From Thermoplasmatota archaeon (GTDB taxonomy: Archaea > Thermoplasmatota > E2 > DHVEG-1): DNA of 64,000 nucleotides. Under the pieces are notes generated by a model. That model saw only the letters and a program-made list of their open reading frames with translations, ran no database searches and had not been told where the DNA came from. Below are positions 17,182 to 56,330 of the stretch, piece after piece (the stretch's first letter is position 1; every line of letters starts with the position of its first letter). A program made the position numbers and the translations under genes. Where the stretch lies: contig JAUWBM010000001.1 in NCBI GenBank assembly GCA_030601705.1, positions 3,473 to 67,472 of the forward strand, written 5' to 3'.

Positions 17182-18491
17182 TGAATCTTCGTGATTTTCT
17201 ATCCACACTTGAAAAGGAAAATAAATTGATACGCATAAAAAAAGAAGTATCTACAAATTATGAAATAGCGAATGTCATGTATTCTCTCGATGAAAAACCA
17301 GTTATTTTTGAGAATGTCAAAGGATTTGATTTCCAGGTTTTTGGTGGTATTACTTCAAATAGGGACATTATTGCCAATGGTCTAGACACAACAAAAGATA
17401 AAATTTTGTTTAAGCTTGTTGAAGCGCTTCGCAATCCAAAAGAACCGGAGATGACAGACAAAGCGCCATGCCAAGAAGTTGTGATAAAAGATCCTGACCT
17501 AAGTAAAATCCCACTCCTCTACCATCTAGATGGTGATGGCGGCAGATATGCCTCTGCTACGGTTTCAACGATAAAAGATCCCGATACAGGCAGAAACGTG
17601 TCATATCATCGTTTAATGGAAATTGGTAAAAACAAGTTCACTGCGCGTCTCATTAAAAACAGACAGACTCGTACCACTTACGACAAACTCCAGGGAGATC
17701 TAGAGATGGCAGTATGTATTGGTAACTCGGTAGCGGTTATGATTGCAGCTTCGCTTGGACCGCCTTCCGGTGTTGACGAATTTTCCATAGCAAATGCTCT
17801 TGATAAGACACCTATGATTAAATGTATAACAAAAGATCTTGAAGTTCCGGCTGAATCAGAATTTGTTATAGAAGGAAGACTTACTAGGGAACTCGATAGA
17901 GAAGGTCCCTTTGTTGACCTTACTGAAACAAGAGATTTTGAGCGACAAGAGCCTGTTTTTGTCGTTGATTGTATAACACGTAGAAAGGATGCAATGTATC
18001 AAGCGTTGATTCCTGGTAGACTTGAACACAAAACGCTCATGGGCATGCCAAAAGAACCGACTATCTACAACGAAGTAAGTAAAGTGGTAGACTGTAAAAA
18101 TGTGCTTGTAACAATGGGTGGCGGTTCATGGCTTCATGGTGTTGTCCAAATCAAGAAGAGACATCCTGATGACGCGAAAAAAGCAATTGAAGCTGCCTTT
18201 AACGGTCATAAAAGCATGAAACATGTGGTTATCATTGATGAGGATGTTGATATTTACAATTCAACTGCTATAGAATGGGCTATTGCAACTAGATTTCAGG
18301 GTGACAATGACCTGACTATAAAACCTGATCAACCAGGTAGCTCTCTTGACCCCTCGGGTAAACATGAAGTGGGGAAGAAAACTCTCACGACAAAGGTGGG
18401 CGTTGATGCAACGATTCCACCTCATATTGATAAAAGTAAATATGAGGTTGTTCAATACAAAAAAGTTGATATAGATGATTACCTCAGGTGA
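17181..18491 (+). CDS. UbiD-family decarboxylase (candidate trans-anhydromevalonate-5-phosphate decarboxylase)
   Basis: UbiD N-terminal signature (LRDFLSTLEKENKLIRIKKEV...VIFENVKG); start overlaps the mvk stop (TAATG). Confidence 0.8.
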   Translation: MNLRDFLSTLEKENKLIRIKKEVSTNYEIANVMYSLDEKPVIFENVKGFDFQVFGGITSNRDIIANGLDTTKDKILFKLVEALRNPKEPEMTDKAPCQEVVIKDPDLSKIPLLYHLDGDGGRYASATVSTIKDPDTGRNVSYHRLMEIGKNKFTARLIKNRQTRTTYDKLQGDLEMAVCIGNSVAVMIAASLGPPSGVDEFSIANALDKTPMIKCITKDLEVPAESEFVIEGRLTRELDREGPFVDLTETRDFERQEPVFVVDCITRRKDAMYQALIPGRLEHKTLMGMPKEPTIYNEVSKVVDCKNVLVTMGGGSWLHGVVQIKKRHPDDAKKAIEAAFNGHKSMKHVVIIDEDVDIYNSTAIEWAIATRFQGDNDLTIKPDQPGSSLDPSGKHEVGKKTLTTKVGVDATIPPHIDKSKYEVVQYKKVDIDDYLR

Positions 18492-18792
18492 TGGTAAATT
18501 CAAAGTGTGGCTTGAGGAGAAAAAGATTGGTGATGATCTCCTCTACATTCTAGGTGGAGGTGAACGAACTCATATTGGAGGAATTGTTTTCTGCGAACCA
18601 AATAAAGAACCTCAGATCATATATTTAGCAGGGCATTATGATGATATTGTTTTAAAAACAATTGCCGAGACAGCATGTAAAAAATACGGCACCAAAGTAG
18701 TTGTAACCGGTGGCATTCATATAGATAATGCTACAAAAAATGATATCGAGAAATTAGTTGAAAATTGTAGGGAGCTAGAAAAATGTATTTAA
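18475..18792 (+). CDS. small uncharacterised protein (105 aa) embedded in the mevalonate operon
   Basis: ORF track; both ends overlap neighbouring genes, suggesting translational coupling. Motifs GGGERTHIGGIVF and VVVTGGIHID; no family assigned. Confidence 0.4.
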   Translation: MITSGDGKFKVWLEEKKIGDDLLYILGGGERTHIGGIVFCEPNKEPQIIYLAGHYDDIVLKTIAETACKKYGTKVVVTGGIHIDNATKNDIEKLVENCRELEKCI

Positions 18793-19967
18793 CTAAAGAA
18801 GAAGAGAAAATTCTTGATGGCGATGAAGGGGAAGTAGAAGCGAGATTGTTTAGGCTGCTTGTGCGATTGGGAGAAATATACGGTGCTGATAAGATGATAC
18901 CTGTAGGATCTGTTCAAGTTGCAGGTGTTTCTTACAAATCCATTAGTGATCCGGGTACAGAGTTCTTAGAAGATATGGCATCAAAAGGTGCCAAGGTAAA
19001 GGTACTCACCTATCTCAATCCTGCAGGAATGGATCTTGAGAATTGGAAGAAAATAGGCTTTCCAAAGGATTTTGCAAAGAATCAGCTGAGGATAATGAAT
19101 GCATTCAAAAGCATGGGCATTGTAATCACTTCTACCTGTACACCGTATCTTGCTGGTAATTTACCACGTTTTAGAGAGCATATAGCCTGGTCAGAATCTT
19201 CTGCGGTTTCATTTTCTAATTCCGTAATTGGAGCGAGAACCAATAGAGAAGGAGGGCCTTCTGCTCTTGCTGCTGCTATTTGCGGTAGAACGCCAAACTA
19301 TGGATTGCATCTTTGGGAAAAACGTCAACCTAACATTAAAATTAAGGTGGACGCTGACATGGACTTTAATGCTGATTTTGGTGCTCTTGGATATTTTGTT
19401 GGTAAGCAAGTTAAAAATAAGATTCCGTACTTTACAGGCATAAAAAATGCAAACACAGACCAGTTAAAGGCACTTGGTGCCGCAATGGCTGCCTCAGGAG
19501 CAGTCGCGTTGTATCACGTCGAGGGGTTGACACCAGAGGCGGATTTGGTTGAAAAGGATGGTTTGGAAACTATAGACGTTGGTAAAAAAGAACTTGATGA
19601 AACCTATGAGAAACTGAATTCCGGTAAAGATCCAGATATTGTGATCCTAGGATGCCCACATGCATCTCTTAGAGAGATTTCGACGCTTGCGGTCAAACTT
19701 AAAGATAAACGTTTGAAGAAACCCATTTGGATATGTACTTCAAGAATGATGAAAGAGGCAGCAGATAGAATGGGTTTCACCGAGATAATCGAGAAGGCAG
19801 GAGGCTACATTGTTGCTGACACCTGCATGGTTGTTTCACCTATTGAGGAAATGGGATATAAAACTACAGGTGTAAACTCCGGTAAAGCAGCAAATTATTT
19901 GCCAGGCTTTTGTAAACAGGATGTTGTCTTTGCAAATATAAATAAGCTGATAGAGGTGCAATCATGA
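18783..19967 (+). CDS. aconitase X catalytic subunit (DUF521; phosphomevalonate dehydratase large subunit candidate)
   Basis: MYLTKEEEKILDGDEGEVEARLFRLLVRLGEIYGADKMIPVGSVQVAG, typical AcnX start. Confidence 0.8.
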   Translation: MYLTKEEEKILDGDEGEVEARLFRLLVRLGEIYGADKMIPVGSVQVAGVSYKSISDPGTEFLEDMASKGAKVKVLTYLNPAGMDLENWKKIGFPKDFAKNQLRIMNAFKSMGIVITSTCTPYLAGNLPRFREHIAWSESSAVSFSNSVIGARTNREGGPSALAAAICGRTPNYGLHLWEKRQPNIKIKVDADMDFNADFGALGYFVGKQVKNKIPYFTGIKNANTDQLKALGAAMAASGAVALYHVEGLTPEADLVEKDGLETIDVGKKELDETYEKLNSGKDPDIVILGCPHASLREISTLAVKLKDKRLKKPIWICTSRMMKEAADRMGFTEIIEKAGGYIVADTCMVVSPIEEMGYKTTGVNSGKAANYLPGFCKQDVVFANINKLIEVQS

Positions 19968-20353
19968 AAGGAAGAATGATATCCCCTGGAAAGATCGAGA
20001 GCGTAGCTATTGTTTCAGAGGAACCTATTGGTTTCTATGGAGGGATAGATATAAAAACTGGTACCGTTATCGAAAAAGATCATCCACTAGAAGGGAGGTC
20101 GGTGAAGGATAAGATACTTGTTTTTCCATGCGGTAAGGGTTCGACAGTTGGATCCTATGTTATCTATGGACTAAAGAAAAATGGGGTAGCACCAAGTGGT
20201 ATTATCAACAAAGAGACAGAAACAATAGTAGCGACAGGTGTAATATTAGCAGGTATTCCATGTGTTGACCAAATAGAGATAGAAAAAATAAAAGATGGAG
20301 ACACTGTTTTATTAGATGCTGATAATGGGATAGTAACAATACAAAAAAAATAA
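19964..20353 (+). CDS. aconitase X swivel-domain subunit (DUF126; phosphomevalonate dehydratase small subunit candidate)
   Basis: ~129 aa; GKGSTVGSYVIYGLKKNGVAPSGII motif; start overlaps the stop of the large subunit. Confidence 0.8.
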   Translation: MKGRMISPGKIESVAIVSEEPIGFYGGIDIKTGTVIEKDHPLEGRSVKDKILVFPCGKGSTVGSYVIYGLKKNGVAPSGIINKETETIVATGVILAGIPCVDQIEIEKIKDGDTVLLDADNGIVTIQKK

Positions 20354-23757: not shown

Positions 23758-25245
23758 ATGAGGGTAAAGAACGCTGCGGGTAGGACGATTGAGACTGCTA
23801 TTGGTGATAAAACGCTGAAGCCTTTTGCAGGAGCAAAAAAATACAGTTGGTGTTCAAAGGTTACAAGTTTGACTGACGCATTGAAAAAATGCGGCCTGAA
23901 GAACGGAAATACACTTTCTTTTCATCATCAACTTCGCAATGGTGACAATGTAATCAATATGACGCTTGCTGCAGCACGTGATCTCGATGTTAAAAATATT
24001 AGAATGGCACAGACTGCAATATTTAACGTTCATGAACCTGTTATAGACTTTATTAAAGAGGGTGTTGTAAATAGAATAGAGGGAAGTATTAATGGTGTTG
24101 TCGGAGATTTTGTTTCTAAGCATCCTCTCCCATATCCCGTTGTGTTGCGTTCTCATGGCGGGCGTTGGGCTGCTGTTAAAACAGATGAATTACATGTTGA
24201 TATTGCTGTTATAGCTGCTTCTGCCGCCGATGTGCGTGGGAATTGTACGGGAATTATTGGTGAGAGTGCGTTTGGCCCCATATCTTATTCTGAAATTGAT
24301 GCAATGTGTGCTGATCATGTGATCGTGGTGACTGACAATGTTGTTGATTACCCCTGTAAATTTCAAGAGATTCAGGAGAGATATGTTGATTATGTAGCAG
24401 AGGTAGATCGCATAGGCGATCCCAAAAATATTATGTCGGGTACAACAAAGATAACAGAAGATCCTATGAAACTGCAGATCGCTCGTGATTGTGTTGAATT
24501 GATGGATGCTGTGGGGATTATTAAAGAGGGCATGATTTTTCAGTCGGGTGCGGGTGGAATATCTCTTGCTGCAATGAAATATTTAGATGATAGACTTGAA
24601 GAAAAAGATATAGTTGCAGCTACTGCAACTGGTGGTCTTACAAAGTTAATATGTGATATTTATAAGGCAGGTCGTGTTAAAAATATCTATTATTCCCAAG
24701 TTTTTGATGAGTATTCTGTAAAGTTTATCCAAGAAGATCTTGGACTGCCAGCTGATATTGGTCATTACGCTGATCCAACCTCCAAGGGCCGTACTATTGA
24801 TGGCCTTGATACAGTTGTTCTTGGTGCAACAGAGGTCGATACAAATTTCAATGTTAATGTTAACACACATAGTGATGGTCGACTTTTACATGGTATAGGA
24901 GGTCATCAGGATACATCTGCTGGTTCATCCTTATGTATTATTTCTTGTCCTGTTTTTAGAAAAGCTAACCCGATTGTTAGAGAGAAGGTTACAACAATTA
25001 CAACCCCTGGAGATGTTGTAGACGCCATTGTAACTAATGAAGGGACAGCAATAAATCCCCAGCGGAAAGACATCATTGAAAAGGTAGAGGGGAAAATAAA
25101 CCTCGTTCCAATAGAAGAGCTAAAGAATATGGCATATGATGCAACAGGTGGACCAGAAGAGTTGGACCTTGGCGAAGAAATCGTAGGCATGACGAAATGG
25201 ATGGATGGAACCGTGTTAGATATTATAAAACGGGTTAAAGAGTGA
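23758..25245 (+). CDS. citF: citrate lyase alpha-subunit homolog (citrate CoA-transferase, CitF family)
   Basis: Near-collinear match to CitF: LSFHHQLRNGDNVINM, VVLRSHGGRWAAV, VDIAVIAAS..D..GN, LDTVVLGATEVDTNFNVNVNTHSDGRLLHGIGGHQDT, TTITTPGDVVDAIVTNEGTAINPQR. Confidence 0.85.
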   Translation: MRVKNAAGRTIETAIGDKTLKPFAGAKKYSWCSKVTSLTDALKKCGLKNGNTLSFHHQLRNGDNVINMTLAAARDLDVKNIRMAQTAIFNVHEPVIDFIKEGVVNRIEGSINGVVGDFVSKHPLPYPVVLRSHGGRWAAVKTDELHVDIAVIAASAADVRGNCTGIIGESAFGPISYSEIDAMCADHVIVVTDNVVDYPCKFQEIQERYVDYVAEVDRIGDPKNIMSGTTKITEDPMKLQIARDCVELMDAVGIIKEGMIFQSGAGGISLAAMKYLDDRLEEKDIVAATATGGLTKLICDIYKAGRVKNIYYSQVFDEYSVKFIQEDLGLPADIGHYADPTSKGRTIDGLDTVVLGATEVDTNFNVNVNTHSDGRLLHGIGGHQDTSAGSSLCIISCPVFRKANPIVREKVTTITTPGDVVDAIVTNEGTAINPQRKDIIEKVEGKINLVPIEELKNMAYDATGGPEELDLGEEIVGMTKWMDGTVLDIIKRVKE

Positions 25246-25251
25246 TATAAA

Positions 25252-26022
25252 ATGAGATGGAACACCAAAATCACAAAGGTTGAGCCGAATCATTTGGTAA
25301 CACGTGGTTATAGACAAGAAGATTTGATAGGGAATATACCGTATTCTCACGTTGTATACCTGCTTTTGAAAGGCGATCTGCCATCAAAAGAACATGGAAA
25401 GATGATTGATGCCATTCTTACTGCCTGTATCGATCATGGGGTAACACCTCCTTCATCAATTGCATCTAGAACTGTAGCATCTGGTGGAGTACCCCTTCCA
25501 ACTGCTGTTGCAGCCGGAATTCTATCTATTGGAGATGCTCATGGTGGGGCAATAGAAAAAGGTGCAAAATTCCTGCAAAATGGCATTTTACGTATGAAAG
25601 AAGAGGGTAAAACAGTAGAAGAAATAGCAGAGATTCTTGTTAATGAGCATAAGGAACAACATAAACGGATATCGGGGTTCGGCCACAGGGTTCATACTTC
25701 AGATCCCAGAACAAAAAGACTTTTTGTACTTGCCGAAGAATTAAAAATTGCTGGAAATCATATGGCTCTTTCAAATGCAGTTGAATTAGAACTTGAAAAA
25801 ACATATGGAAGAAAGCTGCCAATAAATGTAGATGGCGCAATAGCAGCAATTATTTCAGATATGGATTTTGACTGGAGACTTGGAAAAGCATTCTTTTTGT
25901 TAGGTAGAGTTGCAGGATTAACTGCGCATGTTTATGAAGAACAAACTCAGGAAAAACCCATGAGAAAAATGTTTTCAATAGAATGTGACTACAACGGTCC
26001 AAAAGAAAGAGATCTCCCCTAA
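25252..26022 (+). CDS. short citrate-synthase-family protein (citryl-CoA lyase-like, CCL)
   Basis: ~256 aa; VVYLLLKGDLP, DAHGGAIE, GFGHRVHTSDPR and C-terminal R..G..AH..EE correspond to citrate-synthase catalytic motifs without the large N-terminal domain. Confidence 0.75.
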   Translation: MRWNTKITKVEPNHLVTRGYRQEDLIGNIPYSHVVYLLLKGDLPSKEHGKMIDAILTACIDHGVTPPSSIASRTVASGGVPLPTAVAAGILSIGDAHGGAIEKGAKFLQNGILRMKEEGKTVEEIAEILVNEHKEQHKRISGFGHRVHTSDPRTKRLFVLAEELKIAGNHMALSNAVELELEKTYGRKLPINVDGAIAAIISDMDFDWRLGKAFFLLGRVAGLTAHVYEEQTQEKPMRKMFSIECDYNGPKERDLP

Positions 26023-27576: not shown

Positions 27577-27951
27577 TTAAATCACAGTCCCTGTATCAGC
27601 ATCACCAACACTTCTGTAGAACTTACCAGGACTTTGAAAGTGCCCTCTTGGATATCTCTTACGAAAATTCGGTTTTTGCTTGGACAATTCCCTAGATGAA
27701 GCACCTTTTAAAAGATGAAAAGCTTGAGAAACACTCATTGTTGGAGGAATTCCAACAACAACATGAATGTAATCTGATATAACGCTTAGTTCCTCGATCT
27801 TGATTTTATGTCTTATAGCAACTTCTTCTAAAATTTCTTCGCGAAGCTTTTTATTTTCCACTTTCATAAACATCTTGTATCTATACTTAGGATAGCATTC
27901 CAAATGGTACAAATTCTGGTCAATGCCATGGCTACCGTTAACCAATTTCAT
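27577..27951 (-). mobile_element. tnpA: IS200/IS605-family transposase TnpA (Y1 HUH) gene, apparently truncated at both ends
   Basis: YHLECYPKYRYKMF...IEELSVISDYIHVVVGIPPTMSVSQAFHLLKGASSRELSKQKPNFRKRYPRGHFQSPGKFYRSVGD matches IS200 TnpA collinearly; the typical C-terminal tail is missing. Confidence 0.75.
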
Positions 27952-40844: not shown

Positions 40845-41099
40845 ATATTAGGACATAAACTGGTTCCCAGACATGCAATTTTATCTGATAGAGAGAGAAA
40901 GGAACTGTTGGAAAAATACAATATCAGACCCGAACAACTGCCGAGGATTCTGGATACCGACCCTGTGATAATTTCTATTGGAGCAAAGTCGGGACAAATC
41001 GTAAAAATTGTAAGAAAAAGTCAAACTGCTAAATATGCGACAGCTTATAGGATAGTAATAGAAAGTGAGAATAGCGAAAGGGGAATTTTCACAAGCTAG
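40845..41099 (+). CDS. rpoH: DNA-directed RNA polymerase subunit H (Rpo5); true start uncertain (no in-frame ATG upstream of the conserved N-terminus)
   Basis: In-frame translation upstream of the track Met reads ...ILGHKLVPRHAILSDRERKELLEKYNIRPEQLPRILDTDPVIISIGAKSGQIVKIVRKSQTAKYATAYRIV. The RpoH hallmark H.LVP.H.IL lies before the first ATG at 40908. Confidence 0.75.
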   Translation: MLGHKLVPRHAILSDRERKELLEKYNIRPEQLPRILDTDPVIISIGAKSGQIVKIVRKSQTAKYATAYRIVIESENSERGIFTS

Positions 41100-47179: not shown

Positions 47180-48679
47180 ATGGCTACCTCTGCAACTAAA
47201 AATAAAAAACAAAAAAACATAAAAAAACCTGTTAAGCCTAAAAAAGGTATTTCTATCAAAAATCAAAAGAAAAAAGAAATGTTAAAATCTACGGTGGATA
47301 AAACTGTCAAAGCAAAGAAGCTGAAAGAAAAAATGGTTCCTCCGCCACCTAAAAAACAGAAGAAGAAGGAAAAGCCTGCAAAGATTAAAAAAACAAATGA
47401 TATCCGCACCAAAAAGAAGAAAGAAACCTTGAAATCTACTAAGGGTAAAGCTGAGAAGTTAGAATTAAAAATGGTTCCTCCGCCACCTAAAGAAGAAGAT
47501 GAGCCAAAAGAATGCAAAAAGATAAGATCAGAGATAAACGAAATTTTGAAAGATAGATTTCTTCCTAGACACGTAGTTGATAATATTGTAGAATGGGTTG
47601 CTAGGGATAAAAAACTTGAATCAAAATTGAAAATTATAATTGATCGAGTATTGGCTGATTATAGTAAAAATCTAATTGATCCAACTGAAGCATGTGGCAT
47701 GGTAGGTGCACAAAGTATTGGAGAGCCTGGAACGCAAATGACGATGAGAACTTTCCACTACGCAGGTGTAGCAGAAATTAACGTTACTTTGGGCTTACCA
47801 AGGCTCATAGAAATTGTTGATGCAAGATCTATACCGTCAACTCCGATGATGAATATCTATCTCAGAGATGAATATAAGGTAAATCCTGATCTAGCAAAAG
47901 AAATTGCAAATAAAATTGAAATTACAACACTTACAGACGTAGCAGATATTGAAATGGATTTAATTAGTTTAATTACCCATATTAAACCAAACAAAAAAAC
48001 AATGAATAAAAAGGGATTAACATTAGAGGAAATATTGGGGAGATTAAAAACAGTCAGGAAGACAGATGCCCACATAGAAAAAAACGCCATTAAAATAACA
48101 TTAGATGACCCGGGTTATAAAAATCTTCAGAGTGTTAACGAAACGCTTAAAAAATTAAAAATTAAAGGTATCGACGGGATAAAACGTGTTATCATAAGAA
48201 AGGAACCTGATGAAGGATATGTAATATACAGTGAAGGGAGTAATCTCAAAGAGGTTTTAGAAATCGAGGGTGTTGATCCATATAAGACATCAACAAATGA
48301 CATTCATGCTGTCGCTAGAGAACTCGGAATAGAGGCTGCAAGGAACATGATAATTCAGGAGGCACACAATACTCTATCAGAACAAGGTTTGAATGTAGAT
48401 TTAAGACACATTATGATTGTAGCAGATGTTATGACTGCAGATGGCACTGTGAAAGCTATAGGAAGGCATGGTGTAAGCGGTGAAAAGAGCTCTGTATTAT
48501 CCAGAGCTGCATTTGAAATAACAGTGAATCATTTACTATTAGCTAGCCAGAGAGGCGAATCTGATAAACTCAATGGTGTGGCAGAAAACATCATTGTTGG
48601 GCAGCCTGTTAACTTAGGTACGGGCGCTGTTGAGCTTGCTATGGGCCATAGTAAAAGTAAAAAGAAGAAGGGAAAGTAA
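47180..48679 (+). CDS. rpoA2: DNA-directed RNA polymerase subunit A'' (Rpo1C) with a ~120-aa Lys/Pro-rich N-terminal extension containing an internal 46-aa repeat
   Basis: Conserved A'' core from ~aa 125 ([29 protein letters not shown]). The N-terminus carries KKKEMLKST...KMVPPPPKK and KKKETLKST...KMVPPPPKE. Confidence 0.9.
47263..47500. repeat. two ~138-bp direct repeat units encoding the Lys-rich / MVPPPPK motif in the rpoA'' 5' region
   Basis: Identical 21-mer atggttcctccgccacctaaa at 47333 and 47471. Confidence 0.6.
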
Positions 48680-48984: not shown

Positions 48985-49407
48985 ATGTCAGAAATTACCT
49001 TTTCCAATGAAACAGTACAATACATAAGCCTAGCAAGTAAGTATTCTGGGGCAATTATTAAGGACTGCATAGTAGAAGATGATCGTATAATTTTTGTGGT
49101 TGAAAAGGGGGATATGGGCGTTGCTATTGGGAGTAAAGCAAAAAATTTAGAGAAAATGCGTACTCTTTTTAAGAAGAACGTAAAATTTGTAGAATTTGAT
49201 GAAGATAAAAAGAGATTTGTAGAAAATCTTTGTAAGCCATACAAAGTAAATAGCATTGATATGGAAGGGGATGATGCAAGTATTGTAAAAATAAAAGTTA
49301 ATCCAAGAGACAAATCCAAATTAATTGGCAAAGGTGGAATAAACATCAATATGATTCGTAAATTAGCTCGAAGACACCACTCAATTAGGGATGTACAAAT
49401 TAAATAA
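48985..49407 (+). CDS. nusA: archaeal NusA-like transcription termination factor (two KH domains)
   Basis: ~140 aa; GVAIGSKAKNLEKM and IGKGGININMIRKLARR KH GxxG motifs; canonical position after rpl30e. Confidence 0.85.
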   Translation: MSEITFSNETVQYISLASKYSGAIIKDCIVEDDRIIFVVEKGDMGVAIGSKAKNLEKMRTLFKKNVKFVEFDEDKKRFVENLCKPYKVNSIDMEGDDASIVKIKVNPRDKSKLIGKGGININMIRKLARRHHSIRDVQIK

Positions 49408-49493
49408 TTCGCCTTGTTTATTGCAATAATTTTTAAATAGAGTTCTATGTTCAGTAGAGGGGGGTATTCCTGAAAATAAAAAACAAATCTGAC

Positions 49494-52400
49494 ATGCCTT
49501 TTGATGCTGAATCCATCATTGGTGGAAAAAGCGGCGTTCTCAGGGGCTTAGTTAAGGAATATAAAATAGAAATAAAAGGAAAGCCTGAATGTTCTAATGC
49601 GTGCCCAGCAGGGATCAATGTAAAGGCCTATGTAAATCTCATTGCAAACAGGAAATTCGAAGAAGCTGTAGAAGTAATACGTCAGGCTAATCCATTTCCT
49701 GCTGTCTGTGGGAGGGTCTGTACTCGACCGTGTGAAGATAGCTGCGAACATGGAGTAGAAGGAGATCCTGTTTCTATTCGTGCCTTAAAGAAGTACGCCT
49801 CTGATTATGAACTTGCCCGCCGACCTCTTGTGATGGAACCTTGTAAAACAGTTTACGACGAAAAAGTAGCAATAATTGGAGCTGGACCTGCGGGTCTTTC
49901 AGCTGCCGTAGATCTTGTACGAATGGGATATCCTGTCACTGTTTTTGAGACGAAAAAAGACCCAGGGGGAATGCTCCGCTATGCCATTCCACCATATCGT
50001 CTTCCAGATAGAATTCTAAAAAGAGAGATTGACTGGATAAAAGGGCTAGGAGTAAATATCAAAACAGGAACAAAAGTTGATGATTCTGTAACCTTATTTA
50101 AGAAAGGATATTCTGCCATACTCATTGCAACAGGTGCACCAAAATCGTTTTCTCTCGGTATTGGAGGAGAAGAATCGGAAGGAGTTATCGATGCTTTGTG
50201 GTTCTTACGGGGAATCTGTAATAATAGTCCAATAAAAATGGAAGGAAACGTAGTTGTAATCGGTGGCGGATCAACTGCGTTTGATGCTGCTAGATCTGCA
50301 ATTCGACTTGGAGTCAAGAAGGTCACATTGGCATATCGTCGAGGAATAGAAGAGATGCCTGCAGAAAGGGAAGAGGTTGAACACGCCCAAGAGGAAGGCG
50401 TTGAAATATTAACGTTAGCAATTCCCAATAAAATAATCATAAAAGGTGGGAAAGTTACAGGAGTAGAATTTCTTAAAGCAAAGCTTGGTGAGCCTGATGA
50501 ATCCGGGCGAAGAAGACCGGTTCCCATAAAAGGAAGCGAGTTCGTCCTAAACGCTGATATTATTATTCCAGCTATTGGAGCAAGACCTGATGTTGGAACA
50601 GTAGGAAATTGCAAAATTACTGCCCAAAATGGAAGGATAAACGTTAAAGATAAAGGATGTACAATAGTAAAAGGAGTTTTTGCCGCAGGTGACGTTGAAA
50701 CAGGACCATCCTCTGTGGTAAAGGCTATTGGACGTGGACATGAAGCAGCAGTCGGTATTAATACATATTTTAGAGGGGCTGAATATACTGAAATAGGAGA
50801 TTCGTCAAAATCTGTACCAATTGTCCTTGAACCACCAACATATTCTCGCTCCCTCCATTCTCCTAAAAGATTGAGGAAAGAAGAAAGGGTCGCATCATTC
50901 AATGAAGTTGAAGGATCATTTGCAGATTTTGAGATAATAGATGAAGCATCTCGATGCTTTACCTGCGGACCATGCGATGTTTGTACTGTTTGTCTTCCAA
51001 ACTGTAATCACAAACAAGTAGTTGCTCAAACAGAAGAAACAACGTTTCTTTTGAAAGTTCCTTCTGACCTATCTTCTATAGTAACTGAAAAGGGGCCATC
51101 TACAGTTAAGGTAAAAGCCAACGGAAATGAAAAATCAATGACGCTTCACAGTCTCATTCCTGCAGTTGACATAGATCGTTGTATAGGTTGTGGACGATGT
51201 GAGGAAGTATGTGCCTACAAAGCTATAAGAAATGTCCTCAAAAAAGATGGAAGAATAGTTGCTGAGGTTGTTCACAACTCATGTGCATCATGCAGCGCTT
51301 GTGTATCAGCATGTCCCTCAGGTGCTATAAGTCAAGGATATATGTCTGATAAAGAAATACTATCAAGATTATATGAGAAAAAGACACCATTTGAAGGAAT
51401 TAAGGCATTGATGAGCTACTGGAGCACTCCATCACCTGCCTTTGATTATAACGGTGTCGTTGAGGTGATGTCTGCAAGAAAACCTACGCCTTCATTTCTG
51501 ATAAGATCTCTAGCACGATCGGGTAAGGGACTTCTAGTTATCGGACCTAATGAAAAAACTGGGTCGCATTATTTACCCGGGGAAGAACATCCTCTCAATA
51601 CGATTCAACAGGCAAGGAGTTTACTGAAACTTATTGGAATTTCTCCTGATAGAATACAATACAAAGCGGTCCCCAATGGTACAAATCCATCTGGACTGTT
51701 AAAAGAATTCTCAAAATCTCTTGATAAAAAGAAACTTGTCACACTCAAAGCACCATTGCCAAAATCCATCAACGGTCCATTAGGAGAATCTATGACAATC
51801 CTAAGGATTATGGGAGCAAATCCGGATATTAAACCTTCTGATAGTGTTATTCCTATTCAACCGGTAAAATCTGGGGGCACTGCCTTTTTTGAAGGATGTC
51901 TACCGATGCTCCATTGGATTGGAGAATCTCATAAATTATTTGATCTGAGTCCGACTCGCCAGGCCATATATGGTCTTATAAAAAAAATGAAGATTGATGC
52001 TGGATTCATTGAGGGTTTTTCCTGCCCTTCAAAGGGGTTACTACAGACAAAAACTGATGGTATCAAGGAAATTGTATCTAAAATTGAATCAAATAATCTT
52101 AAATCATTTAAGAAGGTAAATCCAAAAAAATTAATCCTTGGAACTCCAGAGTCTTTCTCTTCCTTTTCAAAGGAGAAATATTTTGGAACAATATCCTCTC
52201 TTCCTGATGAACTGTTAAATGTGGCAAAAAAATCAAAAGGTTTTGCCCCTATCGAGAAAACTGTATCCATTCATCGTGCTTGTGCTATAGAAAATGATCC
52301 ATTCTATGAAACCACCAAAAAGCTTCTTGATCTTATTCCGGGGCTCACAATCGTTGAACTAAATGGGCAATGTGAACACAGAGGATTAGAGAATTTTGAT

Positions 52401-52595
52401 GGCAACTCAAAGGAGACTGCCTTACATCTAATGAAAGAGGCAGTCAGTAAAGATGTAGATATGATCATATGCACCTCTCCATATTGTGAGTCTCATCTCT
52501 TGCTGAGTCAAAGAAAGGGATCTTGGCGTTCGGTAGATATTGAAGTAACAGATGTGTATAAAGTGCTTCTTTCTTCTTTAGAAGGTGATGCTTAA
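49494..52595 (+). CDS. large multidomain Fe-S flavoprotein: NfnB/GltD-like NAD(P)H oxidoreductase + 2x[4Fe-4S] ferredoxin + Cys-depleted MvhD-like + CCG-like domains (HdrL-like fusion)
   Basis: N-terminus CSNACPAGINV...CGRVCTRPCEDSC plus FAD/NAD(P) GxGxxG motifs (IIGAGPAGLSAA; VVVIGGGSTAFDAA), as in the GltD/SudA family. Mid region CIGCGRCEEVC...CASCSACVSACP. The later segment resembles MvhD/FlpD with its cysteines substituted; C-terminus Cx..CP-like. Confidence 0.7.
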   Translation: MPFDAESIIGGKSGVLRGLVKEYKIEIKGKPECSNACPAGINVKAYVNLIANRKFEEAVEVIRQANPFPAVCGRVCTRPCEDSCEHGVEGDPVSIRALKKYASDYELARRPLVMEPCKTVYDEKVAIIGAGPAGLSAAVDLVRMGYPVTVFETKKDPGGMLRYAIPPYRLPDRILKREIDWIKGLGVNIKTGTKVDDSVTLFKKGYSAILIATGAPKSFSLGIGGEESEGVIDALWFLRGICNNSPIKMEGNVVVIGGGSTAFDAARSAIRLGVKKVTLAYRRGIEEMPAEREEVEHAQEEGVEILTLAIPNKIIIKGGKVTGVEFLKAKLGEPDESGRRRPVPIKGSEFVLNADIIIPAIGARPDVGTVGNCKITAQNGRINVKDKGCTIVKGVFAAGDVETGPSSVVKAIGRGHEAAVGINTYFRGAEYTEIGDSSKSVPIVLEPPTYSRSLHSPKRLRKEERVASFNEVEGSFADFEIIDEASRCFTCGPCDVCTVCLPNCNHKQVVAQTEETTFLLKVPSDLSSIVTEKGPSTVKVKANGNEKSMTLHSLIPAVDIDRCIGCGRCEEVCAYKAIRNVLKKDGRIVAEVVHNSCASCSACVSACPSGAISQGYMSDKEILSRLYEKKTPFEGIKALMSYWSTPSPAFDYNGVVEVMSARKPTPSFLIRSLARSGKGLLVIGPNEKTGSHYLPGEEHPLNTIQQARSLLKLIGISPDRIQYKAVPNGTNPSGLLKEFSKSLDKKKLVTLKAPLPKSINGPLGESMTILRIMGANPDIKPSDSVIPIQPVKSGGTAFFEGCLPMLHWIGESHKLFDLSPTRQAIYGLIKKMKIDAGFIEGFSCPSKGLLQTKTDGIKEIVSKIESNNLKSFKKVNPKKLILGTPESFSSFSKEKYFGTISSLPDELLNVAKKSKGFAPIEKTVSIHRACAIENDPFYETTKKLLDLIPGLTIVELNGQCEHRGLENFDGNSKETALHLMKEAVSKDVDMIICTSPYCESHLLLSQRKGSWRSVDIEVTDVYKVLLSSLEGDA

Positions 52596-54679
52596 TGCTT
52601 GAGGCAAGGATAAAAAAACATCCGATACTATCTATCGATAAAACATCGGCATCTGTAACATTCACCTTCAATGGGAAGAAACTCACTGCAAAACCAGGAG
52701 AGATGATCTCTTCTGCATTATTTGCTCATGGGATACACATATTTGGCCATCACAAAAAAGACAAGTCTCCCCAGGGAATGTTCTGTGCAAATGGTCAGTG
52801 CTCTCAGTGCTTGGTTATTGTCGATGGCATTCCTGTAAAATCATGTATTACTCCGGTAAAAGAAGGCATGGAAGTAAGATCCTTAGATGGCCTACCTACT
52901 CTTCTTAAAGATGATGAGGTTGTCAAAATCGGTGGTGAGATACCTGTTGTCGATACACCTGTTCTTATCATTGGAGGCGGACCTGCAGGTATGTCTGCCG
53001 CTATAGAATTAGGGCAAATGGGCATATATTGTATCATTTGTGACGATAAACAAGAATTAGGAGGAAAGCTTAGCCTTCAGACTCATAACTTCTTTGGTTC
53101 TATGAGAGACTGTTTTGCTGGGAGTCGTGGAATAGATATAGGTTACGATCTTGCATCTCTTGTGAATGAGAATAAGAACTTGGAAGTTTGGACAAATTCT
53201 CCTGTTGTAGGTGTTTTTGCTGATGGACTTGTTGGAGTCGTGAAAGATGGCAGCTATACTCTTGTGAAACCCGAGAGAATATTAGTAACTGCAGGTGCAC
53301 GAGAAAAGACCTTGGCATTCCACGGTTGCGATTTACCTGGCGTCTATGGTGCAGGTGCATTTCAGACTCTTGTCAATAGGGATCTTATTAAACCTACTGA
53401 CAAATTGTTCATTGTTGGAGGGGGAAATGTAGGTCTAATAGGTGCATATCACGCCTTACAGGCTGGTATTGATGTCATTGGTATTGTAGAAGCCCTTCCA
53501 GAATGTGGTGGATACAAAGTCCATCTTGATAAAATCAAGCGTTTGGGAATTCCGGTTTATACTTCTCATACGGTATTAAGAGCTGAAGGAAAGGATCATC
53601 TTGAACGGGTTGTCATATCAGAGATAGATAATAAGTTCAGACCAATTAAGGGAACTGAAGCGGTTTTTGAGGCAGATACTTTGCTCATTGCTGTAGGATT
53701 GACTCCTGTGAATGAACTAAAGAAACAGGCAGAAGAATTTGGTTTAAAAACATATGCTGCAGGAGACGCTGACATCATCGCAGAAGCATCTGCTGCTATG
53801 TTCTCTGGACGTATAACTGCCAGAGCTGTGCTTAAAGATATGGGATACGACGTTGAGGTTCCACCCGAATGGGAAGAAATGGTGAATATTCTCCGTAGTA
53901 GACCAGGTCCAGTGAAAGAATCTCATCTATTTCCAAAAGATAAAGCTGTGTATCCGATTATCCGATGTGCGCAAGAAATTCCCTGTAATCCCTGCATGGA
54001 AGCGTGTGTTCTCCAAAGTATTAAGATAAAAGAGCCATCAATGATGGGCAGACCACAATTTGATGGAGATTGTCTTGGATGTGCACAATGTGTTGCTATA
54101 TGTCCTGGACTTGCTATAACACTTGTTGATAAAGGATATGATAAAACAAAGAGAACAGCCAGGGTTGTCATCCCTTGGGAGATGCCTGAGGGAACCATAA
54201 AGATAGGGCAAGAAGTAACGACAACAGGGCTAGAAGGAGAAATAATAGGAAAAGGTAAGGTTATTGCCATAAAAGAGTCTAAATGGCAAAATAGGAGGCT
54301 TTTGGTATCATTGGAGGTCCCTTACAATAAAGCAGACCTAGTAGCAGGAATCAGGATAAAGGAACCTAGAAGTAAAAAGATTGGTGCCACTGTCAAACAA
54401 ATTGATGATGGAGAAGTGATTATCTGTCGATGTGAACGTGTCGCTAAAAGTGATATTATTGATTATATCAAGAAGACTGGTACAAGGGATGTAAATGCTG
54501 TAAAGGCAGCACTTCGTGTTGGAATGGGGCCTTGCGGGGGAAAGACCTGTACCGAGCTCATTATGCGTGTGTTTAGAGAACTTGGAATTGACCTGAAAGA
54601 CGTAGAACCACCTGTTGATCGCCCATTCACGCAAGAAGTGCCCCTCAAAGCGTTTCTGAAGGAGGGTGATGACCAGTGA
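52595..54679 (+). CDS. sarcosine-oxidase-alpha / opine-oxidase-A / HcnA-HcnB-like fused subunit (2Fe-2S ferredoxin + FAD/NAD(P) oxidoreductase + 2x[4Fe-4S] + BFD-like [2Fe-2S])
   Basis: N-terminal CANGQCSQC...C 2Fe-2S; LIIGGGPAGMSAA and FIVGGGNVGL dinucleotide motifs; CNPCMEAC...CLGCAQCVAICP ferredoxin; CRCE...GPCGGKTC BFD-like. Start overlaps the upstream stop. Confidence 0.75.
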   Translation: MLEARIKKHPILSIDKTSASVTFTFNGKKLTAKPGEMISSALFAHGIHIFGHHKKDKSPQGMFCANGQCSQCLVIVDGIPVKSCITPVKEGMEVRSLDGLPTLLKDDEVVKIGGEIPVVDTPVLIIGGGPAGMSAAIELGQMGIYCIICDDKQELGGKLSLQTHNFFGSMRDCFAGSRGIDIGYDLASLVNENKNLEVWTNSPVVGVFADGLVGVVKDGSYTLVKPERILVTAGAREKTLAFHGCDLPGVYGAGAFQTLVNRDLIKPTDKLFIVGGGNVGLIGAYHALQAGIDVIGIVEALPECGGYKVHLDKIKRLGIPVYTSHTVLRAEGKDHLERVVISEIDNKFRPIKGTEAVFEADTLLIAVGLTPVNELKKQAEEFGLKTYAAGDADIIAEASAAMFSGRITARAVLKDMGYDVEVPPEWEEMVNILRSRPGPVKESHLFPKDKAVYPIIRCAQEIPCNPCMEACVLQSIKIKEPSMMGRPQFDGDCLGCAQCVAICPGLAITLVDKGYDKTKRTARVVIPWEMPEGTIKIGQEVTTTGLEGEIIGKGKVIAIKESKWQNRRLLVSLEVPYNKADLVAGIRIKEPRSKKIGATVKQIDDGEVIICRCERVAKSDIIDYIKKTGTRDVNAVKAALRVGMGPCGGKTCTELIMRVFRELGIDLKDVEPPVDRPFTQEVPLKAFLKEGDDQ

Positions 54680-55854
54680 TCAAAGAATACGATGTGATTG
54701 TTATCGGAGCGGGTTCTGTTGGAGCTCCTACTGCTTATTTCCTTTCTGAGGCAGGTTTTAAGGTACTGGTTGTTGAGAAACTTTCTTCATCTGGACAGGG
54801 TCAAAATAAGGCAGCAATTGGAGGAGTTAGAGCCACTCATTCAGATCCTGCAAAAATACAAATTTGTCTCCAAAGTATAGATATTTTCTCCAATTGGAAG
54901 GAAAAAACGGGTACAGATATTGGATGGAAGGAAGGAGGTTATTGTTTTCCGGTATATCGAGAGAAAGAAGAGAATATCCTCAAATCTATATTATCTATTC
55001 AAAAGAAATACGGGCTCGATATTGATTGGGTTGATGATGAGGGAATAAAGAAAGTTGTACCAGGTATAAACGAAAAAGGGCTCATTGGAGGTACTTTTTC
55101 ACCTAATGACGGTCAGGTAAGTCCTTTACTCTCTTCAGAGTCTTTTACTAATGAGGCAATGAAGCTTGGGGCTGAGTATAGATATCGTGAAAGCGTTATT
55201 GGTCTCTTAACCGAAGGCGATAAAGGAAATATGTTAGTAAAAGGAATCAAGACAAAAAAAGGAGAATATAAGGCTTATAATGTAGTTAACGCTGCTGGAG
55301 CCCACGCTTCTGCTATATGTAAGATGGCAGGGCTAGATATACCGGTAAATCCGGATAGTCACGAGGCAGGAATAACCGCCCCTGTTGAACCGTTTCTTGA
55401 CCCACTTGTTGTTGATCTACGTCCTGGGGCTGAAGGGAAGACAGTAAACTTCTACTTCGGTCAGAACTTAGAGGGACAAATCATATTTTGTTATACGCCA
55501 AGTAAGATCTTTGCTGGAGAAGACAGGAGATCTACGCCAGAATTTATGCCCATAATTGCTAGAAGATTAGTAAACCTCATTCCAAGATTCAAAAATCTTA
55601 CTATTAGAAGGATATGGAGAGGACTCTATCCAATGACTCCAGATGGGGTTGCAGTAGTTGGTAAACCATCGGGAGTTGAAGGTTTGTACCTTGGGGTTGG
55701 AATGTGTGGACAGGGTTTCATGATGGGACCTGGAGTTGGTTTAAACCTTGCAAATATTATAGCCAAAGGGCCACCCATCATAGAAAATGAAGTGCTCAAC
55801 CTTTTGAGTCCCGACAGAAACTTCTACAGCGGAAAGAAAGAAGCTTTGAAATAG
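54676..55854 (+). CDS. FAD-dependent oxidoreductase (DAO family; sarcosine-oxidase-beta / proline-dehydrogenase-beta-like)
   Basis: YDVIVIGAGSVGAPTAYFLSEAGFKVLVVEK GxGxxG start and C-terminal GxG.G; overlaps the upstream gene by 4 nt. Confidence 0.8.
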   Translation: MIKEYDVIVIGAGSVGAPTAYFLSEAGFKVLVVEKLSSSGQGQNKAAIGGVRATHSDPAKIQICLQSIDIFSNWKEKTGTDIGWKEGGYCFPVYREKEENILKSILSIQKKYGLDIDWVDDEGIKKVVPGINEKGLIGGTFSPNDGQVSPLLSSESFTNEAMKLGAEYRYRESVIGLLTEGDKGNMLVKGIKTKKGEYKAYNVVNAAGAHASAICKMAGLDIPVNPDSHEAGITAPVEPFLDPLVVDLRPGAEGKTVNFYFGQNLEGQIIFCYTPSKIFAGEDRRSTPEFMPIIARRLVNLIPRFKNLTIRRIWRGLYPMTPDGVAVVGKPSGVEGLYLGVGMCGQGFMMGPGVGLNLANIIAKGPPIIENEVLNLLSPDRNFYSGKKEALK

Positions 55855-55943: not shown

Positions 55944-56330
55944 TTATTTCATCTTGAATTCAAACCACTTTACCTTTCCTTCCTTTACAAGTTTTTTGAT
56001 TTTGTTTTGTTTGACATTTAGTTTTGATTTCTCTGTTTTGAATTCTACAAATAGTATTTGATCATCTTCAAATTGTATTCCATCAATTGGATCGCCTATG
56101 TATCGAAAGTTTTCTGTAGAATACGGATATTTTTCCATAGATGATGCAAATTGCTCTGTTATTTTATTATAGGCTATTGATAAAGATTCTTTTTCACTAG
56201 AAAGTTTTTCAATCTTTTTATGTAAAGGAGATATTGCAACTCTATAAACGAGAGTTATTCCAAAAATTACTCCTATTATTATCCCGATTAAGAATACCCA
56301 GAATGTCATTAATGGATCCATCTTATCCAT
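55944..56330 (-). CDS. membrane-anchored protein with a YraN/Mrr-like PD-(D/E)xK nuclease-fold motif
   Basis: N-terminal TM (FWVFLIGIIIGVIFGITLVY), coiled-coil, then GDPIDGIQFEDDQILFVEFKTEKS (D...E.K). Confidence 0.4.
   Translation of the reverse strand: MDKMDPLMTFWVFLIGIIIGVIFGITLVYRVAISPLHKKIEKLSSEKESLSIAYNKITEQFASSMEKYPYSTENFRYIGDPIDGIQFEDDQILFVEFKTEKSKLNVKQNKIKKLVKEGKVKWFEFKMK

Follow-up and report, generated by a model that had tools for sequence, protein, structure and literature searches.

INTRODUCTION

For about 25 years, the heteromeric proline dehydrogenases (PDHs) of archaea have been described merely as "dye-linked," and to our knowledge no physiological electron acceptor has been assigned to them. 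One of them is the alpha-beta-gamma-delta dye-linked L-proline dehydrogenase of Thermococcales (pdhA/F/X/B of Thermococcus profundus and a second complex of Pyrococcus horikoshii). Another is the alpha4beta4 PDH1 of P. horikoshii (Protein Data Bank, PDB, entry 1Y56), which has no NADPH/Fe-S partner and whose alpha subunit reportedly binds ATP and lacks Fe-S segments. The T. litoralis homologs of T. profundus pdhA/F/X/B are ordered alpha-gamma-delta-beta (PMC4364671). Here, we describe a locus in a 64-kb stretch of DNA from a Thermoplasmatota archaeon (contig JAUWBM010000001.1; the whole stretch is hereafter called the window). At this locus, three overlapping genes, g1, g2 and g3, appear to join a fused variant of the L-proline dehydrogenase (g2-g3) to a mosaic iron-sulfur flavoprotein with an NAD(P)H-binding head (g1).

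The same superfamily, with the same subunit logic and motifs, includes LhpBEF (D-hydroxyproline), OdhABC (opine), HcnABC (HCN synthase) and SoxABDG (sarcosine oxidase), which are enzymes of aerobes and have no NAD(P)H/Fe-S partner. The motifs of the heteromeric PDH/Odh/Lhp/Hcn/Sox-type amine dehydrogenases have been compiled by Watanabe et al. (PMC4575208). On the electron-transfer side, NfnB is the bifurcating subunit of NfnSL (PMC10482914). A survey of the Bfu family does not mention proline and leaves 18 of 57 clades uncharacterised. Our literature search, incomplete in coverage and hence weak evidence of novelty, returned no paper in which an enzyme of the PDH type is tied to modules like those of Nfn, Hdr or Bfu. 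Within the limits of that search, the combination of g1 with g2-g3, itself a fused form of the alpha-beta-gamma-delta L-proline dehydrogenase, appears to be undescribed.

RESULTS AND DISCUSSION

Three overlapping genes linked across many loci

The first-pass annotation of the window, made from the letters alone, had described three tightly coupled open reading frames (ORFs) at 49494-55854 of the plus strand. The ORF listing confirmed both their coordinates and their 1-nt and 4-nt overlaps:

49494-52595, + strand: g1, 1033 aa, ATG start, mosaic electron-transfer subunit
52595-54679, + strand: g2, 694 aa, ATG start, predicted fused alpha+gamma+delta subunit of a PDH-type dehydrogenase
54676-55854, + strand: g3, 392 aa, GTG start, predicted catalytic beta subunit of the DAO family

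The g1/g2 junction reads TAATG (1-nt overlap) and the g2/g3 junction GTGA (4-nt overlap), with a GGTGA-type ribosome-binding site preceding both. The three genes were linked in at least 13 loci, six unrelated genomic contexts among them, down to a g1 identity of 37%. In L004-L007, L019, L022, L028 and L031, g1 was 37-49% identical to its window counterpart and the cassette was intact in neighbourhoods unrelated to that of the window. All six g1 homologs that were looked up stood immediately 5' of g2-g3. The cassette moves as a unit. Given the overlaps and ribosome-binding sites, a conserved TATA-like spacer upstream (see below) and the linkage across at least 13 loci, g1-g2-g3 are predicted to be one operon with its own putative promoter.

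The core itself is far more widespread. Searches with g2 patterns retrieved at least 599 stretches in species-representative genomes, at least 577 of which encoded relatives. Full-length identities were 50-81% for the best 80 of these, which came from Thermoplasmatota and from numerous phyla of anaerobic bacteria. In nearly every locus among the matches listed, g2 was followed by g3. Public annotation of this widely distributed core is generic: near-identical NCBI copies in metagenome-assembled genomes (MAGs) of Thermoplasmatales archaea are called "(2Fe-2S)-binding protein," "FAD-binding oxidoreductase" or "hypothetical protein." Proteins identical to those of the window are present in NCBI on a contig of 69.5 kb. 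The core is also far better conserved than its partner, with identities of 64-85% for g2/g3 versus 37-77% for g1 in the same loci.

g2 and g3 as a predicted fused L-proline dehydrogenase

The earlier comparison of g2 with SoxA, HcnAB and OoxA and of g3 with SoxB and the DAO family was supported by Pfam, NCBIfam and PDB matches. Across the three proteins, the domain searches recovered Fer4_20, Pyr_redox_2, FlpD, Fer2_4, Fer2_BFD and DAO. The g3 product matched Pfam DAO (2e-58) over residues 6-360 and carried the FAD motif GAGSVG at residues 11-16. Its best solved match was 1Y56_B, the beta subunit of P. horikoshii PDH1 (1.8e-50 by sequence and 9.7e-60 with a seven-sequence profile). The next families (glycine oxidase, dimethylglycine dehydrogenase and sarcosine oxidase beta) reached about 1e-25 by sequence and 8e-29 or weaker by profile. 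Residues R312-I313-W314 correspond to the Arg-X-Trp motif of the FMN interface and were invariant in seven orthologs.

A Pfam search of g2 returned Fer2_4, Pyr_redox_2 and Fer2_BFD together with a weak dicluster match, and its best PDB matches were 1Y56_A (8.6e-21) and SoxA. Four segments were delimited:

52649-52882, + strand: Fer2_4 [2Fe-2S] domain, g2 residues 19-96, with an invariant C64-x4-C69-x2-C72-x11-C84 motif (Pfam 5.7e-27)
52958-53824, + strand: two-Rossmann flavoprotein domain, g2 residues 122-410, with GGGPAG at 127-132 and GGGNVG at 275-280 followed by E299 (Pyr_redox_2 2.3e-22)
53966-54103, + strand: eight-Cys ferredoxin-type 2x[4Fe-4S] segment, g2 residues 458-503, gamma equivalent (weak Pfam Fer4; 8/8 Cys invariant)
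54419-54577, + strand: BFD-like [2Fe-2S] domain, g2 residues 609-661, delta equivalent (Pfam Fer2_BFD 1.2e-9)

Judged from its motif, GGGNVG may mark a second dinucleotide site, an indirect pointer to the NADH dehydrogenase activity of alpha that, along with the L-proline dehydrogenase activity of beta, characterises the alpha-beta-gamma-delta type. In the BFD-like domain, the four Cys of C611-x-C613-x33-C647-x4-C652 were invariant, the central spacer being 33 residues long versus 15-20 in the published motif (C-X-C-X15-20-C-X4-C). The fused nature of g2 became apparent from L089 and L090, two related loci with separate subunit genes (see below). It was collinear with their individual alpha, gamma and delta genes (for the L089 proteins, over residues 5-450 and then 455-694), being about 40% identical to this split form. 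The separate gamma protein of L089 scored as Fer4_7 and its delta protein as Fer2_BFD plus SO_alpha_A3.

Of the features listed for the family (PMC4575208), a DAO-type beta subunit with GxGxxG, R-x-W, the gamma-type C-X4-C-X2-C-X11-12-C and the alpha GxGxxG were found; the Cys of the alpha-type [2Fe-2S] motif were there with the longer spacer noted above. With the Thermococcales alpha-beta-gamma-delta enzyme, the core shares the protein families and their order alpha-gamma-delta-beta, two GxGxxG motifs, the gamma-type [2Fe-2S] motif, the dicluster ferredoxin segment and the R-x-W FMN motif. It differs in that alpha, gamma and delta are one 694-aa chain rather than separate subunits, and in having the additional 1033-aa partner g1, which has not been reported for Thermococcales operons. 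PDH1 gave the best solved match for both g3 (chain B) and g2 (chain A), although chain A matched g2 residues 10-278 only. SoxA and SoxB were the next-best matches, at a much weaker, superfamily level of similarity (~1e-25 vs. 1e-50). Considering the best matches to 1Y56, the collinearity with the split genes and the family motifs, the g2-g3 core is identified from its sequence as a fused version of the archaeal alpha-beta-gamma-delta L-proline dehydrogenase family.

A GlpABC-like anaerobic glycerol-3-phosphate dehydrogenase, which also combines DAO, BFD and CCG domains, was considered and rejected. GlpA scored 55 bits with g3, versus 115 for soxB and 175 for 1Y56_B, and the neighbouring genes described below encode enzymes of delta-1-pyrroline-5-carboxylate (P5C).

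g1 as a mosaic partner subunit

Full-length homologs of g1 formed about 75 clusters at ≥48% identity, and the few with names were from Thermoplasmatota. Pfam recognised Fer4_20, Pyr_redox_2, a 2x[4Fe-4S] domain and FlpD/MvhD in g1. Together with profiles and a structure model, this upheld the earlier view of a chain with GltD/NfnB-like, ferredoxin, MvhD-like and CCG-like parts:

49581-50783, + strand: NfnB/GltD/BfuA-like module, g1 residues 30-430, with two N-terminal Fe-S clusters, FAD site GAGPAG and NADPH site GGGSTA...YRR
50955-51005, + strand: CxxCxxCxxCxxCxxxC motif of an additional Fe-S cluster, g1 residues 488-504 (six Cys in 64/64 sequences)
51156-51329, + strand: dicluster (2x[4Fe-4S]) ferredoxin domain like that at the HdrA C-terminus, g1 residues 555-612 (Pfam Fer4_7/Fer4_21; eight Cys invariant)
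51459-51740, + strand: MvhD/FlpD-like domain without cluster ligands, g1 residues ~656-749 (profile match to solved MvhD chains)
51876-52592, + strand: double CCG-domain fold (HdrB/LutA/EtfD-like), g1 residues ~795-1033, with Cys C802, C844, C930, C960, C993 and C998 (6 of 10)

The head of g1 closely resembles the large subunit of NfnSL (NfnAB) and the NfnC/BfuA/StnC subunits of Bfu-type transhydrogenases. Residues 18-496 aligned end to end with these proteins (9bov_A, 1.6e-110; 9n5u_A "NfnA," 4e-98; StnC 8oh5_C, 1e-92; NfnSL-L 4ylf_B, 4e-88), including clusters, FAD and NADPH sites and YRR. When residues 32-428 were compared, 4ylf_B (3.7e-88) and 5jca_L (3.6e-79) also had the cluster Cys and YRR in common with g1. 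The head Cys C33, C37, C72, C76, C80 and C84 were invariant in 57-64 of 64 homologs. The two [4Fe-4S] clusters, FAD and NADPH site of an NfnB/L-type subunit are thus all represented by their motifs. The first part of the six-Cys motif aligned with the Cys-rich continuation of NfnC/StnC, and g1 548-621 matched residues 569-641 of HdrA (5odc_A, E 1.6e-13), the only part of HdrA that was matched.

The two C-terminal domains were borne out in part. Homology to MvhD was clear, the profile of g1 625-1033 matching solved MvhD chains at 2e-11, but the segment has lost its ligands: VMCSGR...GGCHLGDCHY of MvhD reads VMSARK...IGPNEKTGSHY in g1. In the window clade no Cys occurs between g1 residues 608 and 801, while a distant g1 clade retains the MvhD Cys. 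Likewise, the double-CCG fold was present in the structure model, but Pfam CCG remained below cut-off (18.9 vs. 20.6 bits). Neither CCG motif was intact, C-P or C-E standing for CCG, and the first half had no CxxC.

Compared with the known systems, several components are missing. There is no gene for an NfnA/S partner (FAD + [2Fe-2S], NAD(H) site) in the operon or its flanks, and the NuoF/NuoE-like BfuB and BfuC of BfuABC are not in the window. The C-terminal part of g1 consists of HdrA-ferredoxin, MvhD-like and CCG domains instead of a formate-dehydrogenase-like domain as in Nfn/Bfu subunits. In contrast to HdrABC-MvhAGD, the flavoprotein core of g1 is of the GltD/NfnB type in place of the thioredoxin-reductase-like bifurcating core of HdrA. 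The g1 clade has lost the MvhD ligands and has CCG motifs that are incomplete relative to HdrB (CXnCCGXmCXXC, 10 Cys), and neither HdrC nor a hydrogenase accompanies it. By its sequence, g1 is best described as a mosaic of known domains in a new combination, probably serving as a lineage-specific redox partner.

An MvhD-like/CCG module was found directly 5' of g2 in many phyla, as a free 391-aa protein in L012 and in split form in L038 and L048, where a TfrB/GlpC-like protein carries the CCG part. In Bacillota it was fused to the g2 N-terminus, with its CCG domain reduced to a remnant. Because of this fusion (Rosetta-stone evidence), the C-terminal part of g1 probably contacts g2. The NAD(P)H head, in turn, was exchangeable among g2-g3 loci, being NfnB-like, NuoEF-like, both or absent. 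NuoE/NuoF-type (Bfu B/C-like) subunits accompanied the core in 15 bacterial loci.

Many g1 homologs are annotated as 865-895-aa proteins (P0034, P0040, P0053 and others). These are start-codon miscalls and not a shorter architecture: at L008:9581-10001 and L009:6923-7300, the frame extends upstream with neither a stop codon nor an ATG and supplies the N-terminal 140 aa of g1. Selenocysteine or stop-codon read-through in these homologs, prompted by the NCBIfam family "diclust_near_Sec," was rejected, as L008 and L009 had no in-frame stop.

Neighbours of the core point to proline and P5C

A proline-, sarcosine- or opine-type amine dehydrogenase paired with an Nfn/Hdr-like electron-transfer module had been proposed for this locus. 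The domain evidence agrees with that pairing, and gene neighbours elsewhere narrow the substrate to proline/P5C. By neighbour clustering and family scans, a P5C dehydrogenase stood beside g2-g3 in 10 of 88 loci, both archaeal and bacterial. The three P5C dehydrogenases tested scored above their curated thresholds, with 751 and 806 bits against 614 for TIGR01236 and 771 against 648 for NF002852. In Bacillota loci, the operon encoded an ornithine aminotransferase (707 vs. 656), a NuoE/NuoF-type protein, the Fe-S/MvhD-g2 fusion, g3 and a P5C reductase, and in one Bacillota locus a trans-4-hydroxy-L-proline dehydratase was found upstream (1347 vs. 1100). The strongest argument for the proline/P5C couple is that these recurrent neighbours all make or consume P5C, and L-proline/P5C is, on this genomic evidence, the most likely substrate pair.

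Other members of the superfamily act on other compounds, and the core could similarly use sarcosine, an opine, D-proline, hydroxyproline, pipecolate or glycine, as SoxAB, OdhABC, LhpBEF and HcnABC members do. In line with this, g3 stayed below all curated NCBIfam cut-offs (soxB 115 vs. 529, ThiO 108 vs. 251, DadA 106 vs. 383), an OdhB close to ProDH does not use proline (PMC4575208), and soil Thermoplasmata have, in the vicinity of g2-g3, a gene of the DHDPS family, members of which take part in the breakdown of D-hydroxyproline. This gene is, however, 5 kb away and under every curated cut-off. Moreover, g3 matches PDH1 beta better than the sarcosine, glycine and dimethylglycine enzymes by 25-30 orders of magnitude, and the recurrent neighbours are P5C enzymes. 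We therefore consider another amine substrate distinctly unlikely.

In L027, L030, L034 and L036, MAGs labelled Bdellovibrionales/Victivallales, a P5C dehydrogenase was directly upstream and g2 was nested in the archaeal clade (neighbour-joining). Either gene transfer between the domains or the mis-binning of archaeal contigs would account for these loci.

Proposed electron path

On balance, and with modest confidence, we favour an NADP(H)-linked, possibly ferredoxin-coupled proline/P5C oxidoreductase, acting as a single soluble complex with multiple flavins and Fe-S clusters. We infer that the three proteins associate physically. The core would be formed by g3 (beta, FAD) and g2 (FAD, two [2Fe-2S] and two [4Fe-4S] clusters), with an FMN expected at the g2/g3 interface. 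For the whole complex, some 3 FAD, 1 FMN and 8-9 clusters are predicted from the motifs. NADP(H) would exchange a hydride at the FAD of the NfnB/BfuA-like head of g1. The Fe-S chain of g1 would comprise the two N-terminal clusters, the six-Cys cluster and the HdrA-type dicluster ferredoxin domain, with the cluster-less MvhD-like adaptor and the HdrB-like CCG domain connecting the head to g2. Electrons would then run between the g1 clusters, the g2 clusters and flavin, the interface FMN and the FAD of g3, where proline and P5C would be interconverted.

The link to NAD(P)H is supported by the head of g1, which is closest to the NADPH-oxidising NfnC/BfuA/StnC and the NfnSL large subunit and retains YRR; NADPH rather than NADH is the presumed nucleotide. 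A role of ferredoxin is suggested by energetics. The proline/P5C couple lies near -120 mV, about 200 mV above NAD(P)H. Transfer from proline to NADP+ would be strongly uphill, and ferredoxin is therefore the presumed third partner. Coupling to it is also proposed because the complex is large, because bacteria recruit Bfu-type modules to the same core and because a small P5C reductase serves the downhill direction. NAD(P)H itself is placed near -320 to -380 mV (PMC9304861). In the confurcating direction, the reaction would be proline + reduced ferredoxin + 2 NADP+ -> P5C + oxidised ferredoxin + 2 NADPH, and in reverse the enzyme would carry out a P5C-dependent, NADPH-driven reduction of ferredoxin (bifurcation). 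Ldh-EtfAB of Acetobacterium woodii offers a functional analogy, as its substrate couple also lies well above NAD(P)H and co-oxidation of reduced ferredoxin has been proposed. Its Etf-based proteins are unrelated, and the likeness is conceptual.

Genuine bifurcation or confurcation in g1-g2-g3 is a possibility that we regard as rather doubtful on the sequence data. Homology does not establish it, since the solved structures most similar to the g1 head are those of NfnC/BfuA and StnC, which form a non-bifurcating "mid-potential path" (PMC12018979), and NuoEF genes were not found in the window. These two points weigh against the favoured reading, as do several others. With the cluster of the MvhD-like domain lost and only 6 of the 10 Cys left in the CCG domain, it is uncertain how electrons would cross the C-terminal third of g1. 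Neither in the window nor in its close relatives does a P5C dehydrogenase or another gene of proline metabolism adjoin the cassette, so that proline as substrate here is carried over from orthologs at 60-68% identity. BjOdhB2, close to the L-ProDH subfamily, is an octopine dehydrogenase inactive on proline (PMC4575208). Some genomes have g2-g3 without any g1-like partner. Finally, the fused type is known from genes alone, and the closest characterised enzymes have been assayed only with artificial dyes.

These points leave room for the same complex working without bifurcation, either as an NADPH-dependent P5C/imine reductase or as a proline dehydrogenase feeding ferredoxin or another single acceptor, with the g1 head as an NADPH:Fe-S port. 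Such simple coupling would suit the fact that the closest solved head homologs (9bov_A, 9n5u_A and 8oh5_C) are non-bifurcating NADPH-oxidising modules and that NuoEF/Bfu B-C genes are neither in nor near the window operon. We nevertheless judge it unlikely. A transfer from proline to NADP+ would have to overcome the ~200 mV given above, and the downhill task is accomplished by a 270-aa P5C reductase, which co-occurs in the Bacillota loci. Without energy coupling, it is difficult to see why a complex should be so elaborate (~2100 aa, roughly nine clusters, four flavins), and the bacterial versions recruit modules of the Bfu bifurcation type.

The CCG domain of g1 could also provide another active site, for the reduction of a disulfide or a comparable acceptor, which would make the enzyme a proline/NADPH-dependent Hdr-like reductase. 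Its double-CCG fold is related to HdrB, LutA and EtfD, with four to six Cys conserved, and a heterodisulfide-type couple at about -140 mV (PMC9304861) would be nearly isopotential with proline/P5C. Nonetheless, its CCG motifs are not intact and allow at most one cluster, whereas HdrB needs two non-cubane clusters. The Bacillota remnant fused to g2 is what is expected of a docking or wiring domain. We consider this possibility highly improbable.

At this locus and in its relatives, operon structure and gene fusion hard-wire a PDH core to NAD(P)H-binding Fe-S modules of the kinds used in bifurcation. It is tempting, though quite speculative, to view the g2-g3 core with its exchangeable NAD(P)H modules as a previously unrecognised bifurcating/confurcating class with proline/P5C as the high-potential couple. 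Equally tentatively, such a class would draw on Nfn/Hdr mosaics in Thermoplasmatota, and its members in Bacillota and other bacteria on modules of the NuoEF/Bfu type. It would account for proline oxidation in strict anaerobes that have no quinones, or for energy conservation during the reduction of P5C derived from ornithine or hydroxyproline, and would provide the "dye-linked" proline dehydrogenases of archaea with a natural redox partner. Were the coupling real, flavin-based bifurcation would gain a new substrate class, and a gap would be closed in models of anaerobic proline, ornithine and hydroxyproline catabolism in sediment and soil microbes.

The nusA site: an old arrangement and a probable cassette exchange

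Upstream of the cassette are rpoH (40908-41099), an unsplit rpoB, rpoA', rpoA'', the L30e gene and a KH-type nusA, in the order given by the first-pass annotation. Downstream, the minus strand carries convergent genes for an Endonuc_Holl protein, a GT2 glycosyltransferase and a 1231-aa surface protein. The boundaries of the cassette and the elements of the spacer preceding it are as follows:

48985-49407, + strand: nusA (KH-type; Pfam KH_2/KH_5), last gene of the RNA polymerase (RNAP) cluster, upstream boundary
49431-49440, + strand: TATA-box-like element TTTTTAAATA, with AATAA before it, within the 86-nt nusA-g1 spacer
49459-49476, + strand: leader motif GGGGGGTATTCCTGAAAA, ~25 nt past the TATA element, in the expected start-site region
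55944-56330, - strand: Endonuc_Holl-family gene (Pfam), convergent, downstream boundary, also 3' of the cassette in L001, L089 and L090

As had been remarked, nusA is not followed by rps12-rps7-fusA in the window, the cassette standing there instead, and no signature of rps12, rps7 or EF-2 was found anywhere within the 64 kb. This adjacency was also missing in nine related loci, whose cassette-preceding nusA was 57-75% identical to that of the window. It was present in the more distant L094 (54% RpoA'' identity), which has the canonical nusA-S12-S7-EF2-EF1a-S10. These observations are the basis for seeing the cassette as a recent foreign insertion into the RNAP/ribosomal supraoperon, with the strand switch at 55.9 kb as a breakpoint.

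The comparison with related genomes contradicted such an event in this particular genome. The order rpo...nusA, g1-g2-g3 and convergent GT2/surface-protein genes recurred in six other contigs (L001, L002, L003, L008, L009 and L011), with g1 identities to the window of 59-77%; the arrangement is thus shared lineage-wide. L001-L003 were obtained by looking up g1 homologs at 77, 62 and 60% identity, L008 through P0053, a protein that had been miscalled short, and L009 and L011 from a scan of species-representative genomes. The synteny kept on both sides and a host-like composition (GC content at third codon positions, GC3, of 0.26-0.31 for g1-g3 vs. a window median of 0.28, and host-like codon usage) led us to reject recent horizontal insertion.

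The nearest RNAP relatives were L089 and L090, from a metagenome scan with RpoA'', and L059, from a genome scan (vs. the window: rpoB 88%, rpoA' 81-85%, rpoA'' 83-84% and nusA 72-75%). In L089 and L090, nusA and Holl/GT2 flank a split operon at L089:12012-15334 and L090:3508-6830, whose alpha, gamma, delta and beta products have 486, 153, 90 and 385 aa, respectively, and are 31-40% identical to g2/g3. Since this PDH-type operon occupies the same site behind a homologous promoter-like spacer, the data suggest an in-place exchange of one PDH-type cassette for another.

In L059:9379-11605, nusA was directly followed by a divergent g2, without g1. About 1.6 kb into g2 (from ~11605) this contig turns into high-GC bacterial DNA, aconitase-like by eye, and appears to be chimeric there. 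In a neighbour-joining tree, the L059 g2 was a long-branch sister of the window clade, a placement that suggests that g1 was lost. L059 was also considered as evidence that g1 had been inserted between nusA and g2; this was not supported, its g2 being sister to the window clade and the outgroups having g1, so that loss is more likely.

The spacer supports the same history. TAATA(N)TTTTTAAA was found at the same spacer position in L001, L002, L003, L008, L009, L011, L089 and L090 (comparison by eye and by pattern), and TTTTTAAATA is the probable promoter of the cassette, its function being predicted from this sequence conservation. In the spacers of the g1-containing relatives (L001-L003, L008, L009 and L011), GGGGA(K)TACTTCTGA(A/G)AA was conserved as well. 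The window copy of this leader motif lies 18-35 nt before the g1 ATG, too distant for a normal ribosome-binding site.

From the shared synteny, the PDH-type operons of L089, L090 and L059, the common spacer and the host-like composition, we conclude that the nusA/rps12 break is real but old. A PDH-type operon has held this site family-wide, and only its type has changed. We give next to no credence to a recent foreign insertion. A "broken supraoperon" can thus be stable and family-wide, with the metabolic cassette at the break exchanged over time.

Between the cassette and the convergent Holl gene, L001 (16529-17992) and L089 (15367-17244) carry a GatB/GatE-family gene, which is absent from the window, where Holl directly follows g3.

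Other features of the window and its relatives

In the RNAP cluster, RpoA'' of the window has a Lys-rich, low-complexity N-terminal extension of ~150 aa (47180-47630), and its relatives vary in length (467-526 aa proteins). The rpoA'' gene of L001 (6325-9282) hosts an intein with a LAGLIDADG endonuclease, giving a 985-aa product. An isolated ORF of 124 aa at 27580-27951 (- strand) encodes an IS200-like Y1 transposase (Pfam Y1_Tnp 2.7e-21).

Two further gene groups lie on the plus strand. The cluster at 16231-20353 encodes a mevalonate-type GHMP kinase, a decarboxylase of the UbiD family, an ORF of 105 aa and the large and small subunits of aconitase-X. This combination corresponds to the modified mevalonate pathway of archaea. 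At 23758-26022, a homolog of CitF (citrate lyase alpha-subunit) is followed by a short protein corresponding to the C-terminal domain of citrate synthase only, a pair that is possibly related to citryl-CoA chemistry.

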